Assembly (NCBI RefSeq): GCF_011045215.1
Contig: NZ_CP049201.1
DNA: 64,000 nucleotides
Source: Escherichia coli
Lineage (GTDB): Bacteria > Pseudomonadota > Gammaproteobacteria > Enterobacterales > Enterobacteriaceae
Reading direction: 5' to 3' (one strand)
How positions within the stretch are numbered: the stretch's first letter is position 1; every line of letters begins with the position of its first letter. Below the pieces are notes generated by a model that saw only the letters and a program-made list of their open reading frames with translations, was not told where the DNA came from and searched no databases. Both the position numbers and the translations under genes were made by a program. Shown in pieces: positions 29 to 51,851 of this stretch.

Positions 29-955
29 ATGATTGAATTTAGCCATGTCAGCAAACTGTTTGGCGCACAAAAAGCCGTTAACGATCTCAATCTCAATTTT
101 CAGGAAGGGAGTTTTTCGGTGCTGATTGGCACATCTGGCTCCGGCAAATCCACCACCCTGAAAATGATTAACCGCCTGGTGGAGCATGACAGCGGAGAGA
201 TCCGCTTTGCCGGAGAAGAAATTCGCTCGCTGCCAGTACTGGAGTTGCGCCGCCGTATGGGCTATGCCATTCAATCTATTGGCCTGTTTCCCCACTGGAG
301 CGTGGCACAAAACATTGCCACCGTGCCGCAATTACAAAAATGGTCGCGGGCGAGGATTGACGATCGTATCGACGAATTAATGGCGCTACTGGGGCTGGAG
401 TCAAATTTACGTGAGCGTTATCCACATCAGCTTTCCGGTGGTCAGCAGCAACGTGTGGGAGTGGCGCGTGCACTGGCTGCCGATCCGCAAGTCTTACTGA
501 TGGATGAACCTTTTGGCGCACTGGACCCGGTAACGCGCGGCGCGTTGCAACAAGAGATGACGCGCATTCACCGTTTGCTGGGGCGCACTATTGTGCTGGT
601 CACTCATGATATTGATGAGGCGCTACGGCTGGCAGAACATCTGGTATTGATGGATCACGGTGAAGTGGTGCAGCAGGGGAATCCGCTGACGATGCTGACT
701 CGTCCGGCGAATGATTTTGTCCGCCAGTTTTTTGGACGTAGTGAACTGGGTGTGCGCCTGCTTTCGTTACGTAGTGTGGCGGATTACGTGCGTCGCGAAG
801 AACAAGCAGAAGGTGAGGCACTGGCAGAAGAGATGACGCTACGCGATGCGCTCTCTCTGTTTGTCGCGCGGGGATGCGAGGTGCTGCCGGTGGTGAACAC
901 GCAGGGCCAGCCTTGCGGCACGCTGCATTTTCAGGATCTGCTGGTGGAGGCGTAA
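29..955 (+). CDS. yehX: ABC transporter ATP-binding subunit of the YehZYXW osmoprotectant (glycine betaine-type) uptake system
   Basis: 308 aa ORF; Walker [13 protein letters not shown] signature LSGGQQQRV, Walker B LLLMDEP; C-terminal CBS-like tail; followed 4 bp later by the permease gene. Confidence 0.9.
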
Positions 956-959
956 GCGT

Positions 960-1691
960 ATGAAGATGTTGCGCGATCCGCTGTTCTGGCTCATTGCTTT
1001 GTTTGTGGCACTGATTTTCTGGCTGCCTTACAGCCAGCCGCTGTTTGCTGCCTTGTTCCCACAACTGCCACGACCCGTTTATCAGCAAGAAAGTTTTGCA
1101 GCTCTGGCACTGGCTCATTTCTGGCTGGTGGGAATTTCGAGTTTGTTTGCGGTGATCATTGGTACTGGTGCCGGAATTGCTGTCACTCGCCCGTGGGGCG
1201 CGGAATTTCGCCCACTGGTGGAAACTATTGCCGCCGTTGGACAGACTTTTCCGCCCGTCGCGGTGCTGGCGATCGCCGTTCCGGTGATCGGGTTTGGTCT
1301 GCAACCAGCGATTATCGCCTTGATCCTTTACGGTGTGCTGCCCGTCCTGCAGGCGACACTTGCCGGGCTGGGAGCGATTGATGCCAGCGTGACAGAAGTT
1401 GCGAAAGGTATGGGAATGAGTCGTGGTCAGCGACTGCGTAAGGTCGAGCTACCGCTGGCGGCTCCGGTGATTCTGGCGGGCGTGCGAACTTCGGTGATTA
1501 TCAACATTGGTACGGCGACGATCGCCTCAACGGTAGGGGCCAGCACGCTGGGTACGCCCATCATCATCGGGCTTAGCGGATTTAATACCGCGTATGTGAT
1601 CCAGGGGGCGTTACTGGTGGCACTGGCGGCGATCATCGCAGACCGCCTGTTTGAAAGGCTGGTGCAGGCGCTTAGCCAGCACGCAAAATAA
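960..1691 (+). CDS. yehW: ABC transporter permease subunit of the YehZYXW system
   Basis: 243 aa hydrophobic multi-TM ORF immediately downstream of yehX; matches K-12 YehW length and context. Confidence 0.9.
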
Positions 1692-1779
1692 AGGTATAAC
1701 CTGCGAGCATGACGCCACCAATTCCGCCTAACGCCATAAACAGGAACAGGGCGATGACCCCAATTTTAGCTATGCGCAT
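1675..1779 (-). CDS. yohO: small (34 aa) hydrophobic membrane protein, convergent with and overlapping the yehW 3' end
   Basis: Hand-translated minus-strand [38 protein letters not shown], below the 60 aa cutoff of the ORF track; single predicted TM helix; position between mlrA and yehW matches the K-12 small protein YohO as I recall it. Confidence 0.6.
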
Positions 1780-1838
1780 AATGCACTCCTTATGTTAACG
1801 AAAGGATTGTACAGTAAAGCGCATTTGTTAACGAATCA

Positions 1839-2570
1839 TTAAATGCCGAGTGGGAAAATATCATAGCCTTGTTCTTGCCAACTGGTGAGTTGCTGTTGTT
1901 GGGCGGAGGTTCGATTTTCACCGCACCACACCAGCAATGTACGGCCTTCGAACAGTTCAGGGCGTAGTTGATTGAGCGAGTGGGCGAGGACATCAATGCG
2001 CCATCCTTGTTGACTGGCAATCCAGCCCTCCAGCCACAGACGGGTGGTATCGTGAATATTCCAGCCAACCACCAGCGCATCTTTACCCTGTTTTTTACGT
2101 GCCGAAGCCAGACAGATGGCGATGTAGTTGATCAGTACGCCGTCGAGGATCGCCAGCAGCGCCTGGAGAGTCGGTTGTTGGCACTGAAGCCGTCGGCGCA
2201 GAGGAATAAACAGATGCGTGGTGAGCGTCTGGGCGGGGTAATCCTGACCGCGCTCTTTGATCCACGTTCGCAGGCTATGCAGATTGCCGCTTTGCAAGTA
2301 AGTCAGTAATGTTTCTTGCTGATCGCGCCAGCCGTTCTGCACATCAACATTTTCATTACTGAGCAGCATTTTAACTTTGCTGACCTGCACGCCGTTGTCG
2401 ATCCAGCGTTTGATCTCGCGGATCCGGTCAATATCGGCATCGTTGAACAGCCGATGACCGCCGTCTGTCCGTTGCGGTTTCAGCAATCCGTAACGCCTCT
2501 GCCACGCGCGTAACGTGACAGGGTTAATATCACAAAGCAACGCCACTTCACCAATTGTGTAAAGCGCCAT
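1839..2570 (-). CDS. mlrA: MerR-family transcriptional regulator (activator of csgD/curli)
   Basis: 243 aa; N-terminal MerR HTH (YTIGEVALLCDINPVTLRAWQRRYGLLKPQRTDGGHRLF); K-12 context. Confidence 0.9.
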   Translation of the reverse strand: MALYTIGEVALLCDINPVTLRAWQRRYGLLKPQRTDGGHRLFNDADIDRIREIKRWIDNGVQVSKVKMLLSNENVDVQNGWRDQQETLLTYLQSGNLHSLRTWIKERGQDYPAQTLTTHLFIPLRRRLQCQQPTLQALLAILDGVLINYIAICLASARKKQGKDALVVGWNIHDTTRLWLEGWIASQQGWRIDVLAHSLNQLRPELFEGRTLLVWCGENRTSAQQQQLTSWQEQGYDIFPLGI

Positions 2571-2791: not shown

Positions 2792-4477
2792 ATGTACGAT
2801 TTTAATCTGGTGTTGCTGCTGCTTCAGCAGATGTGCGTTTTTTTAGTCATTGCATGGTTAATGAGTAAAACGCCATTATTCATACCGTTAATGCAGGTCA
2901 CGGTTCGTCTGCCGCATAAATTTCTCTGCTACATCGTCTTTTCCATCTTCTGCATCATGGGCACCTGGTTTGGGTTGCACATTGACGATTCTATTGCCAA
3001 TACCCGTGCGATAGGCGCGGTAATGGGCGGCTTACTCGGCGGTCCGGTCGTCGGTGGGCTGGTTGGCCTGACCGGCGGGTTACATCGATATTCGATGGGG
3101 GGCATGACCGCGCTAAGTTGCATGATCTCGACCATCGTTGAAGGATTGCTCGGCGGCCTGGTACACAGCATCCTGATCCGTCGCGGGCGCACTGATAAAG
3201 TCTTTAACCCCATTACCGCTGGTGCCGTCACGTTCGTCGCTGAAATGGTGCAAATGCTGATCATCCTGGCGATCGCCCGACCTTATGAAGATGCGGTGCG
3301 TCTGGTGAGTAATATTGCTGCGCCAATGATGGTCACCAATACCGTCGGCGCGGCGCTGTTTATGCGTATATTGCTCGATAAACGCGCGATGTTTGAAAAA
3401 TACACTTCGGCTTTTTCTGCCACTGCGCTGAAAGTGGCAGCCTCGACGGAAGGCATTTTGCGCCAGGGGTTTAACGAAGTGAACAGCATGAAAGTGGCAC
3501 AGGTGCTGTATCAGGAGCTGGATATTGGTGCAGTCGCGATTACCGATCGAGAGAAATTGCTGGCCTTTACCGGAATTGGTGACGATCACCATTTACCCGG
3601 CAAACCGATTTCTTCGACTTACACCTTAAAAGCGATTGAAACCGGTGAAGTGGTCTACGCTGATGGCAACGAAGTACCTTATCGTTGCTCTTTGCATCCG
3701 CAATGCAAACTGGGGTCGACGCTGGTAATTCCGTTGCGTGGTGAAAATCAGCGGGTGATGGGCACCATCAAATTGTATGAAGCCAAAAACCGTTTATTTA
3801 GTTCAATCAACCGCACGTTGGGTGAGGGGATTGCGCAATTGCTTTCGGCGCAGATCCTTGCCGGGCAATATGAGCGGCAAAAAGCGATGCTCACCCAGTC
3901 AGAGATCAAACTGCTTCACGCCCAGGTGAATCCCCATTTTTTGTTTAATGCGCTTAACACCATTAAAGCGGTGATCCGCCGCGACAGCGAACAGGCCAGC
4001 CAGCTGGTGCAGTATCTTTCCACTTTTTTCCGCAAAAACTTAAAGCGGCCTTCGGAGTTTGTTACTCTCGCCGACGAAATTGAACATGTGAACGCTTATC
4101 TGCAAATTGAAAAGGCGCGCTTCCAGTCGCGGTTGCAGGTCAACATTGCTATTCCGCAAGAATTATCCCAGCAGCAATTGCCCGCGTTTACCCTGCAACC
4201 GATAGTGGAAAACGCCATTAAACATGGGACATCACAACTGCTGGATACAGGGCGAGTGGCAATCAGCGCCCGACGTGAGGGGCAACATTTGATGCTGGAG
4301 ATCGAAGACAATGCCGGTTTGTATCAACCGGTAACCAATGCCAGTGGGCTGGGGATGAATCTGGTGGATAAGCGTTTACGTGAACGGTTTGGCGATGACT
4401 ATGGGATAAGCGTCGCCTGTGAGCCTGATAGTTACACCCGAATAACGTTACGACTACCATGGAGGGACGAGGCATGA
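2792..4477 (+). CDS. btsS: LytS-type sensor histidine kinase of the pyruvate-responsive BtsS/BtsR system
   Basis: 561 aa from ATG 2792 (ORF track begins 15 nt upstream at GTG); 5TM Lyt domain, GAF, His-kinase region; stop overlaps btsR start (ATGA). Confidence 0.9.
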
Positions 4478-5719: not shown

Positions 5720-5744
5720 GGCGGCCATGCGAAACATGGCCGCC
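5720..5744. terminator. 10-bp-stem hairpin between convergent yehS and yehR (ggcggccatg cgaaa catggccgcc)
   Basis: Perfect inverted repeat seen in sequence; no strong T-tract on either strand, so termination is inferred only. Confidence 0.35.
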
Positions 5745-12951: not shown

Positions 12952-12990
12952 AAATAAAAAAACCTGCTGGTGAGGCAGGTTCTTTTATTT
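12952..12990. terminator. hairpin (aacctgc tggtgag gcaggtt) flanked by an A-tract and a T-tract; candidate bidirectional terminator upstream of yehL
   Basis: Seen in sequence: 7-bp stem, aaaaaaaa upstream and cttttattt downstream. Confidence 0.4.
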
Positions 12991-13276
12991 ACTATTTTCA
13001 GGCCTAACACCACAGCCTGTGCAACATCGTGTTCCAACGAACGAATTATAACCACGGCTGGACCCCGTTGCAATTAAGATAATGAGATTTATAATCCAGA
13101 CCGTTGGGACGTTGCGCCGGATCGAACCTATTTCAAGTCCTGGCTACCGGACGGGTGGTGCTGCAGGTGGTGCCCTGATCCGGAGTGCAACATCGTGGTC
13201 CAACATACGTAAACCAGTATCGACAGGCAGTGTAAGGGTAAGGTGCTGGTGTTGCGCTCCTTAATAAGGAGAGCGG

Positions 13277-35389: not shown

Positions 35390-35523
35390 CAACCAAACGA
35401 CTCGGGGTGCCCTTCTGCGTGAAGGCTGAGAAATACCCGTATCACCTGATCTGGATAATGCCAGCGTAGGGAAGTCACGGACCACCAGGTCATTGCTTCT
35501 TCACGTTATGGCAGGAGCAAACT
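35390..35523 (+). promoter_or_regulatory. TPP (THI-box) riboswitch in the thiM leader
   Basis: Leader contains ctcggggtgcccttctgcgtgaaggctgagaaatacccgtatcacctgatctggataatgccagcgtagggaa, the characterised E. coli thiM aptamer, followed by the SD-sequestering expression platform. Confidence 0.85.
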
Positions 35524-38043: not shown

Positions 38044-38790
38044 ATGGAACAAGCGCATACCCAGCTGATTGCCCAACTGAACGAGCGTATTTTAGCGGCG
38101 GATAACACGCCGCTTTATATTAAGTTTGCCGAAACGGTAAAAAATGCCGTGCGCAGCGGGGTGCTGGAGCATGGCAATATTTTGCCCGGTGAGCGTGATT
38201 TAAGTCAGTTAACCGGCGTTTCACGCATTACGGTGCGCAAGGCGATGCAGGCGCTGGAAGAAGAGGGGGTGGTGACGCGTTCGCGTGGTTACGGCACGCA
38301 GATCAACAACATCTTCGAATACTCGTTGAAAGAAGCGCGAGGTTTTTCTCAGCAGGTGGTATTGCGCGGGAAAAAGCCCGATACGCTATGGGTTAACAAG
38401 CGTGTCGTGAAATGTCCCGAAGAAGTCGCGCAGCAGCTGGCGGTCGAAGCGGGAAGTGATGTCTTTTTGCTTAAGCGTATTCGCTATGTCGATGAAGAAG
38501 CGGTATCGATTGAGGAATCGTGGGTTCCGGCGCATTTAATTCATGATGTTGATGCCATCGGAATTTCTCTTTATGACTATTTCCGCAGCCAGCACATTTA
38601 CCCACAACGTACACGTTCCCGCGTTAGCGCCCGGATGCCAGATGCCGAGTTTCAGTCACATATTCAGTTAGATAGCAAAATACCGGTGCTGGTGATCAAG
38701 CAAGTGGCGCTTGACCAACAGCAACGGCCTATTGAATACAGCATTAGCCACTGTCGCAGCGATCTATACGTTTTTGTGTGCGAGGAGTAG
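38044..38790 (+). CDS. yegW: GntR-family transcriptional regulator
   Basis: 248 aa; GntR HTH (LPGERDLSQLTGVSRITVRKAMQALEEEGVV) plus UTRA-like C-domain. Confidence 0.85.
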   Translation: MEQAHTQLIAQLNERILAADNTPLYIKFAETVKNAVRSGVLEHGNILPGERDLSQLTGVSRITVRKAMQALEEEGVVTRSRGYGTQINNIFEYSLKEARGFSQQVVLRGKKPDTLWVNKRVVKCPEEVAQQLAVEAGSDVFLLKRIRYVDEEAVSIEESWVPAHLIHDVDAIGISLYDYFRSQHIYPQRTRSRVSARMPDAEFQSHIQLDSKIPVLVIKQVALDQQQRPIEYSISHCRSDLYVFVCEE

Positions 38791-39729
38791 TTCCTCGCGC
38801 GTTGGCGCACAATCACCGCCCCGATGCCCGACAACCCACGACGCCACTGCATTGCCCAGTAATACGGCATCCGCCAGTGGCAGACCAGAGGCCAGCCCGG
38901 CAAGTACGCCACCGGCATGACTGTCGCCCGCCCCAATGGTGTCGACAACTTGCGTTGGAAATGCCGGAATGCAGGCAGAAGCGTCGTTGCTGAAATACCA
39001 TGCGCCTTCTTTATCGAGACGAACGATCAACGGCGCGGCAAATTTCTCCTGCCATTGTTTGCCAAGTGTTGTTATCTCTGCGGATAAAGCAAAACGTTCG
39101 GCGGCAATCTCAGCCTCTTGACGATTGAGCGACACTAAAGGGCGACAGGCCATGATCCGCGCCAGTAATGCGTCCGGGATATCGCCAATACGTGGGCCAA
39201 AATCGATAAACGGCGTCACGTCTTGCAGCTCTTCCAGCCATTCCACTAACAATTCGCCGCAGGGCGAGGCCAGTTGATAACCGGAAAAATAGAGCAGGCT
39301 GCCAGGCGCAACGGTTAATCGCGCCAGCCACTGGCGATTCCACTGATTTTCCACACCGCTGAATGACATAAAAGTGCGTTCGCCATCCGGCTCAACCAGC
39401 GCCAGGCACCAGCCGTTATCACCTTTGGCGTTATCGATCAGGCTGATTAACCCCTCTTTTGCCATCCGGTTGCGAATAATCTCCGCCCATACCCCCTGAC
39501 CGAGCGGCAAGGCATTACCCGCTTCGATGCCGAGGCGCTTTAACGCCACGGCAATATTCAGTGCGCAGCCGCCAACGTTAACGCTCTGCTGTTTCAGTTC
39601 GATATCGCACCCACGCCAGGGGAGGGCATAAGCGTCGGCGATCACGTCAATGACCGCCGCGCCGACGACCATCACCGGCTGACGCGTGGTTAATTCAGGC
39701 AGCAGCGTGTGTAATCGAGCGCCGCTCAT
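38764..39729 (-). CDS. yegV: PfkB-family sugar/nucleoside kinase
   Basis: 321 aa; ribokinase-like GG and DTIGAGD motifs; convergent with yegW, 3' ends overlapping 27 bp. Confidence 0.85.
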   Translation of the reverse strand: MSGARLHTLLPELTTRQPVMVVGAAVIDVIADAYALPWRGCDIELKQQSVNVGGCALNIAVALKRLGIEAGNALPLGQGVWAEIIRNRMAKEGLISLIDNAKGDNGWCLALVEPDGERTFMSFSGVENQWNRQWLARLTVAPGSLLYFSGYQLASPCGELLVEWLEELQDVTPFIDFGPRIGDIPDALLARIMACRPLVSLNRQEAEIAAERFALSAEITTLGKQWQEKFAAPLIVRLDKEGAWYFSNDASACIPAFPTQVVDTIGAGDSHAGGVLAGLASGLPLADAVLLGNAVASWVVGHRGGDCAPTREELLLAHKNV

Positions 39730-43337: not shown

Positions 43338-43460
43338 CCCGTAGGACGGATAAGCCGTTTACGTCGCATCCGGCAACCTATGCCTGATGCGACGCTGACG
43401 CGTCTTATCATGCCTACACAGCGCTGCCACGTATGTTTACGCCGCATCCTGCATAAAACC
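43338..43460. repeat. BIME: cluster of REP palindromic units between fbaB and gatY
   Basis: Recognisable REP units gtaggacggataagccgtttacgtcgcatccggcaa and gcctgatgcgacgctgacgcgtcttatcatgcctaca plus a partial third. Confidence 0.7.
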
Positions 43461-51730: not shown

Positions 51731-51817
51731 AAAAAATAAGCCCGTGTAAGGGAGATTACACAGGCTAAGGAGGTGGTTCCTGGTACAGCTAGCATTTTAT
51801 GGGTTATGTTTTTCAGC
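51731..51817 (-). ncRNA. cyaR: Hfq-dependent sRNA CyaR (RyeE)
   Basis: Minus-strand sequence gctgaaaaacataacccataaaatgctagctgtaccaggaaccacctccttagcctgtgtaatctcccttacacgggcttatttttt matches CyaR as I recall it, including the intrinsic terminator. Confidence 0.85.
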
Positions 51818-51851
51818 GAAACGGATGATAACCTTAATAAATGCAGCTGTA

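Follow-up and report, generated by a model that had tools for sequence, protein, structure and literature searches.

Overlapping coding ends of two convergent gene pairs, yehW/yohO and yegW/yegV, in Escherichia coli

Genes and features at the two junctions

The window, by which we mean the whole 64,000-nucleotide stretch of Escherichia coli DNA analysed here (contig NZ_CP049201.1 of assembly GCF_011045215.1), contained approximately seven convergent gene junctions. At yehW/yohO and yegW/yegV, the coding sequences of the convergent neighbours overlapped at their 3' ends (Table 1). The gene coordinates were taken from a mechanical listing of open reading frames (ORFs) and from the RefSeq annotation of a 99.9%-identical strain, and the two sources agreed.

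Table 1. Positions of genes, overlaps and RNA features at the two junctions (window coordinates)
Feature	Position	Strand	Remarks
yehX	29-955	+	ORF listing and RefSeq annotation
yehW	960-1691	+	Stop codon TAA at 1689-1691; ORF listing and RefSeq annotation
yohO	1672-1779	-	Small membrane protein of 35 amino acids; coding sequence includes the stop codon at 1672-1674
yehW/yohO coding overlap	1672-1691	both	20 nt, counting both stop codons
Hairpin across yohO stop codon	1662-1682	both	Imperfect; Escherichia-specific; no downstream U-tract on either strand
yohO 3' UTR	1613-1671	-	59 nt, all antisense to yehW codons; Term-seq end at 1613
p19-captured, RNase III-cut dsRNA region	1477-1768	both	Cluster 173, Huang 2020 Tables S1 and S3; coordinates mapped
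Rho-dependent termination position	1431	-	Adams 2021; coordinate converted from exact match
yohO Shine-Dalgarno, AAGGAG	1786-1791	-	6 nt 5' of the ATG; ~90% column conservation, 80 sequences
Candidate yohO -10 hexamer, TACAAT	1806-1811	-	Sequence and good conservation
mlrA	1839-2570	-	Same-strand upstream neighbour of yohO
yegW (ggaR)	38044-38790	+	Stop codon TAG at 38788-38790; ORF listing and RefSeq annotation
yegV	38764-39729	-	Stop codon at 38764-38766; PfkB-family sugar kinase, final gene of yegTUV
yegW/yegV coding overlap	38764-38790	both	27 nt, counting both stop codons
Hairpin with yegW stop codon in loop	38780-38798	both	7 bp, GCGAGGA/TCCTCGC; no downstream U-tract on either strand

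The yehW gene is the final gene of the osmF-yehYXW ABC-transporter operon and encodes a permease with a BPD_transp_1 domain at residues 68-239 of 243. Its stop codon was located within the Phe-Ile codons of yohO. The first-pass annotation had described this overlap as 17 bp long; the overlap itself stands, but the interval 1675-1691 omits the yohO stop codon and the length had to be revised. Likewise, the 34 codons previously counted for yohO were found to be 35 sense codons plus a stop. The length of 27 nt given for the yegW/yegV overlap was exact.

The YegW protein contained an N-terminal GntR winged-helix domain (PF00392, residues 29-87) and a C-terminal UTRA effector domain (PF07702, residues 108-242), as is characteristic of GntR/HutC-type repressors. 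The suggestion made from the sequence, that this GntR regulator may control the neighbouring kinase operon, agrees with published work in which GgaR (YegW) was found to bind upstream of yegT and to repress yegTUV, which is transcribed as one RNA of ~3.3 kb (PMC10819704). ADP-glucose has been proposed as the effector of GgaR, which was found at ~20 molecules per cell and at a constant concentration (PMC10819704).

Both pairs are ordinary members of the bacterial class of tail-to-tail overlapping genes (PMC4161906, PMC2716372), which they resemble in having a short 3'-3' coding overlap made by stop-codon movement, and nothing material sets them apart from it. Of the 663 adjacent E. coli gene pairs counted as overlapping, 75 are convergent overlaps of coding sequences (PMC4161906). 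At this frequency of approximately one every 62 kb, the presence of two overlaps in 64 kb is within expectation and unremarkable. Among 5426 complete E. coli genomes, 5425 matched the segment at 1300-2700 with 95% to 99.9% identity, and since the overlaps are also kept across genera, the sequence comparisons indicate that neither of them is an accident of a single strain.

YohO and the conservation of the yehW/yohO overlap

A reading frame of 35 codons could arise by chance, and the ORF listing contained many comparable frames close by, which raises the question of whether the yohO overlap is an annotation artefact, caused by a chance antisense ORF or by a misassigned stop codon. This is extremely unlikely on several grounds. 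All of YohO (residues 1-35 of 35) was covered by a match to the NCBIfam equivalog NF010225, with a score of 80.1 bits against a cutoff of 57. Across 68 species, the entropy in the part of yohO outside the overlap was 0.43, 0.07 to 0.21, and 1.08 to 1.13 bits at codon positions 1, 2, and 3, respectively, a strong third-position periodicity of the kind left by purifying selection acting on a protein. The start codon was conserved in about 90% of the 80 sequences examined, to the same extent as the Shine-Dalgarno sequence. Top-down mass spectrometry has detected YohO (PMC12529367), and a preprint gave Ribo-seq coverage of yohO in the annotated frame and cited its membrane association to Hemm 2008. 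Taken together, the family match, the periodicity, the conserved Shine-Dalgarno sequence and start codon, the mass spectrometry, and the Ribo-seq coverage led us to reject yohO as a chance ORF. The first-pass annotation had singled out a lack of yohO translation as the result that would speak against it; both types of experiment gave positive evidence of translation.

The E. coli small membrane proteins reportedly found by Hemm et al. in 2008 include the YohO family. YohO resembles these proteins (NF010225) as a full-length member of 35 amino acids with one hydrophobic helix.

The hexamer TACAAT upstream of yohO is probably its -10 element, as judged from the sequence and a suitable spacing to the transcript end at ~1798. 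We also considered an anti-Shine-Dalgarno segment, UCCUU (~1801-1805), which could pair with AAGGA in read-through RNA from mlrA and thereby mask yohO; this candidate was dismissed, as the upstream arm was poorly conserved. A start near 1798 specific to yohO would leave out the UCCUU arm, and the pairing may mean nothing. On the opposite strand, a promoter-like site was noted inside the start of yohO at 1754-1790 (+), consisting of ATGACC, a 17-nt spacer and CATAAT, with the -10 element ending at 1782. An antisense transcription start published by Thomason, as quoted in the p19 table, mapped to ~1790 on the plus strand, and an RNA starting there would be antisense to the 3' end of mlrA.

To follow the overlap across species, we scanned one genome per species for YehW, which yielded 80 loci in the Enterobacterales. 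A yohO orthologue convergent to yehW and overlapping its coding end by 14 to 26 nt was identified at 79 of the 80 loci. The overlap was 20 nt long in Escherichia, Citrobacter, Salmonella, Cedecea, and Buttiauxella, and 26 nt long in Enterobacter, Klebsiella, Kosakonia, Leclercia and their relatives, while lengths of 17 nt and 14 nt were found in two Enterobacter strains and in a Pantoea, respectively. The 26-nt form contained a 6-nt insertion inside the overlap, which added two codons to both proteins. At the loci with the insertion (L012, L017, L018 and ~40 others, near positions 3213-3238, aligned to window positions 1672-1691), YohO ended in ...FIVRGGVG and YehW in ...RHRREQ. It was also noted that a contig labelled 'Chryseobacterium sp. 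18061' (locus L078) contained an Enterobacteriaceae-type yehW-yohO locus with a 26-nt overlap and 75% identity to E. coli YehW, and this is probably a contaminated or mislabelled assembly.

At the sole locus without yohO, the YehW protein was just two residues shorter. For this reason, the end of yehW looks ancestral, with the tail of yohO appearing to extend into it. Within the overlap, the variability at third positions of yohO codons, which lie opposite second positions of yehW codons, dropped from 1.08-1.13 to 0.67-0.83 bits, as predicted if the segment is under a dual coding constraint.

Transcript ends and the terminator question

The first-pass annotation had proposed that the convergent overlap forces the two genes to share 3' transcript regions, and that mapped transcript ends upstream of the overlap would contradict this. 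The published data for yehW/yohO support the sharing. A 3' end classified as "primary yohO / antisense yehW" was recovered by Term-seq under at least two of three growth conditions (Adams 2021, PMC7815308), and the 61-nt sequence given for it matched positions 1613-1673 of the minus strand exactly. The yohO transcript thus ends 59 nt inside yehW, with a 3' UTR that folds into a 7-bp hairpin at ~1628-1647. In the same study, a position farther downstream on the yohO strand, again antisense to yehW, was reported to show Rho-dependent (bicyclomycin-sensitive) termination (PMC7815308).

Capture of double-stranded RNA with p19 identified yehW and yohO as cluster 173, "yehW yohO", with overlap type Full and 194 sense versus 174 antisense RPM (Huang 2020, PMC7373196). 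The 21-nt duplexes from this study were mapped to 1616-1638, 1650-1672, and 1654-1676, each with the 2-nt 3' overhangs that RNase III characteristically leaves. The p19 table also quotes a yohO transcription unit of 254 nt from the RNA-seq data of Conway, along with an overlapping unit of 3884 nt that corresponds to the osmF-yehYXW operon (PMC7373196). According to these entries, the yohO unit runs from 1798 to 1544 on the minus strand and the end of the osmF-yehYXW unit coincides with 1798, which places the yohO unit wholly beneath the osmF-yehYXW transcript. The yehW transcript end at ~1798 is taken from RNA-seq coverage quoted second-hand in that table; the Term-seq data gave no 3' end for this transcript. 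The actual transcript overlap thus comprises the entire yohO mRNA, approximately 185 to 250 nt, and not 17 to 20 nt. No 3' end at yegW/yegV was found in the Term-seq data (Adams 2021), no yegW/yegV entry was present among the listed rows of the p19 data (Huang 2020), and the SMRT-Cappable-seq supplements contained no entry for yehW, yohO, yegW, or yegV.

One explanation for convergent transcripts of this kind is a bidirectional intrinsic terminator in or beside each overlap, in which case both RNAs would stop at one common hairpin, as happens at most convergent junctions. Each of the two E. coli junctions contained a hairpin spanning a stop codon, and the local fold at 38780-38798 had a z-score of -2.3 to -2.9. 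However, no U-tract followed either hairpin on either strand, consensus terminator scans of the two junctions did not exceed what shuffled sequence would give, and there was no spacer between the genes. The yohO/yehW region folded no better than shuffled sequence (z-score -0.7 to -1.3). Nor were the hairpins conserved outside close relatives: the one at 1662-1682 was not kept in other genera and the one at 38780-38798 was only partly retained in Salmonella and Klebsiella. Moreover, the yohO 3' end, 59 nt past the stop codon, lies beyond the first hairpin, and the Rho-dependent termination occurs farther on. A shared terminator hairpin is therefore very unlikely. A conserved RNA structure in the 3' region of yohO was likewise rejected, since RNAalifold gave -1.48 kcal/mol with essentially no covariation for 80 orthologous sequences. 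We conclude that canonical or conserved terminators are lacking at both E. coli junctions. Termination by Rho is documented for the yohO strand (Adams 2021), and as no conserved terminator structure was found at either junction, Rho and/or polymerase collision are probably responsible for the other ends.

The more usual arrangement is illustrated by the neighbouring convergent yehS/yehR junction in the same window, where a 41-nt spacer contained a perfect 10-bp GC-rich hairpin at 5720-5744. The yohO/yehW and yegW/yegV junctions of E. coli resemble the bidirectional terminators at yehS/yehR and in the yegW/yegV spacer of Providencia in that each site joins two convergent transcription units, but they differ in having neither a spacer nor a hairpin flanked by A- and U-tracts. 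The yehS/yehR stem consisted of GGCGGCCATG / CATGGCCGCC in the window and of GGCGGTCATG / CATGACCGCC for MG1655 in the Term-seq table, a compensatory double change.

The yegW/yegV overlap varied more between genera. An identical 27-nt overlap was found in Salmonella, Klebsiella, Cedecea, and Pectobacterium, and a 14-nt overlap in Pantoea, whereas the genes were separated by a spacer of 67 nt in Yersinia intermedia and of 32 nt in Providencia. Direct folding of the Yersinia and Providencia spacers revealed strong palindromic hairpins (z-score -3 to -3.8), which were not called by a terminator scan with strict criteria; the Providencia hairpin had A6 on one side and T6 on the other, as in a bidirectional terminator. 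YegW was 248 amino acids long in nearly all Enterobacterales homologues and its C-terminus was constant (DLYVFVCEE or DMYVFVSEE), whereas the tail of YegV differed between the genera with an overlap and those with a spacer. Because of the hairpin spacers in Yersinia and Providencia, the constant end of YegW and the differing tail of YegV, the comparison indicates that the overlap is derived, with the spacer lost and yegV extended into the antisense strand of yegW. The differing YegV tail also fits an origin in which a stop codon or the spacer was lost and the gene was then extended at its 3' end. Since the yegW-yegTUV module in Yersinia and Providencia lacks the coding overlap, the module does not require it.

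Read-through and possible regulation at the overlaps

Both sites are likely to be convergent junctions without terminators, at which read-through generates double-stranded RNA and at most a modest dampening, rather than dedicated switches. As no intrinsic terminator is present between the stop codons, each transcript would have to pass its own stop codon into the coding sequence of its partner. For yohO/yehW, published data show a short transcription unit of yohO itself, which starts at ~1798 and has 3' ends at 1613 and ~1544, with a Rho region at ~1431. The whole unit is complementary to the 3'-terminal part of the osmF-yehYXW mRNA, and this mRNA appears to continue to ~1798. The yohO and yehW RNAs pair in vivo and the duplex is cut by RNase III, as the p19-captured products show.

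We infer the same geometry for yegV/yegW, with pairing and trimming by RNase III. The yegTUV mRNA, repressed by GgaR at the distant yegT promoter, would end soon after the yegV stop codon and a short way into yegW, which fits its size of ~3.3 kb. With both partners transcribed, the net effect at either site would be at most a modest reciprocal dampening through polymerase collision and cleavage of double-stranded RNA. Any alteration of an overlap has to be compatible with both reading frames, which may be why the overlaps persist.

Alternatively, the overlaps could be selected regulatory devices, or true excludons. Transcription of osmF-yehYXW would then shut down yohO, or the reverse, and derepressed yegTUV transcription would read into ggaR and lower the level of the repressor, giving positive feedback on induction. 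Both pairs are indeed named in Table 1 of the paper in which ExcludonFinder was used to list 165 convergent excludons in MG1655 (NAR 2025, PMC12288877). They resemble the pairs on that list in being convergent adjacent genes with transcripts that overlap at their 3' ends, as established from published datasets, which for yegV/yegW means the PMC12288877 listing; at yohO/yehW, the expected double-stranded RNA, cleaved by RNase III, has also been captured. However, judging from the description of the method, such a listing appears to be close to automatic for expressed pairs with overlapping coding sequences. The excludons have an average intergenic distance of 95 nt (PMC12288877), whereas here the coding sequences themselves overlap. 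The outcome that defines an excludon is mutually exclusive expression, whereas the two pairs described here are known by their transcript overlap; mutual exclusion of these pairs was not found in published expression data, and our literature search revealed no report of either overlap altering the expression of the partner gene. The first-pass interpretation is thus supported in part, namely for the physical overlap of the transcripts.

The conservation of the overlaps can be read in two ways. The presence of the yohO/yehW overlap in 79 of 80 species, with an indel of 6 nt that keeps the frame, could reflect selection for the arrangement, and the length of 27 nt shared by Escherichia, Salmonella, Klebsiella, Cedecea, and Pectobacterium would fit with this. 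However, conservation is expected regardless, as changes are constrained by two frames. The confirmed relation between regulator and target (PMC10819704) favours feedback at yegW/yegV, but the same module has a spacer with a hairpin in Yersinia and Providencia, and GgaR is kept at a low and constant number of molecules per cell. On balance, we consider it unlikely that the overlaps are selected devices.

It is quite doubtful, more specifically, that the yohO/yehW conservation represents a selected coupling in which YohO and osmF-yehYXW are reciprocally tuned through double-stranded RNA, with a corresponding positive feedback from yegTUV to ggaR. If it did, YohO could even be a small protein that modulates the very transporter to which the overlapping permease gene belongs. 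Should the arrangement prove to be regulatory, it would provide one further worked example of an excludon and no new principle.

Read as convergent junctions without terminators, the two pairs have a significance that is small beyond bookkeeping. Both overlaps were already known, being part of the standard annotation, included in published lists of overlapping transcripts and members of a common class. The transcript overlap, the double-stranded RNA, the translation of YohO, and the link between GgaR and yegTUV have all been published. The additions made here are modest: the conservation of the yohO/yehW overlap at nearly all loci, the derivation of the yegW/yegV overlap by spacer loss, and the lack of a conserved terminator.

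Some further elements were noted in the window. A 3' end described in the Term-seq data as "internal to mlrA" mapped with one mismatch to position 2522 on the minus strand, 48 nt past the mlrA start codon, and a scan placed a terminator-like hairpin at 2566-2544, just before it; this 3' end may represent premature termination or attenuation of mlrA. In a genomic SELEX study of minor sigma factors, one of the RNA polymerase binding peaks lies within yehW, flanked by yohO and yehX, and is classed as type D (intragenic) (PMC5493296); it corresponds to window positions ~1300-1690. Finally, four Rfam matches reached the gathering threshold, namely CyaR sRNA, OrzO-P antitoxin RNA, a TPP riboswitch located upstream of thiM, and naRNA4, at 51734-51819 (-), 12956-13031 (-), 35393-35489 (+), and 43344-43414 (+).
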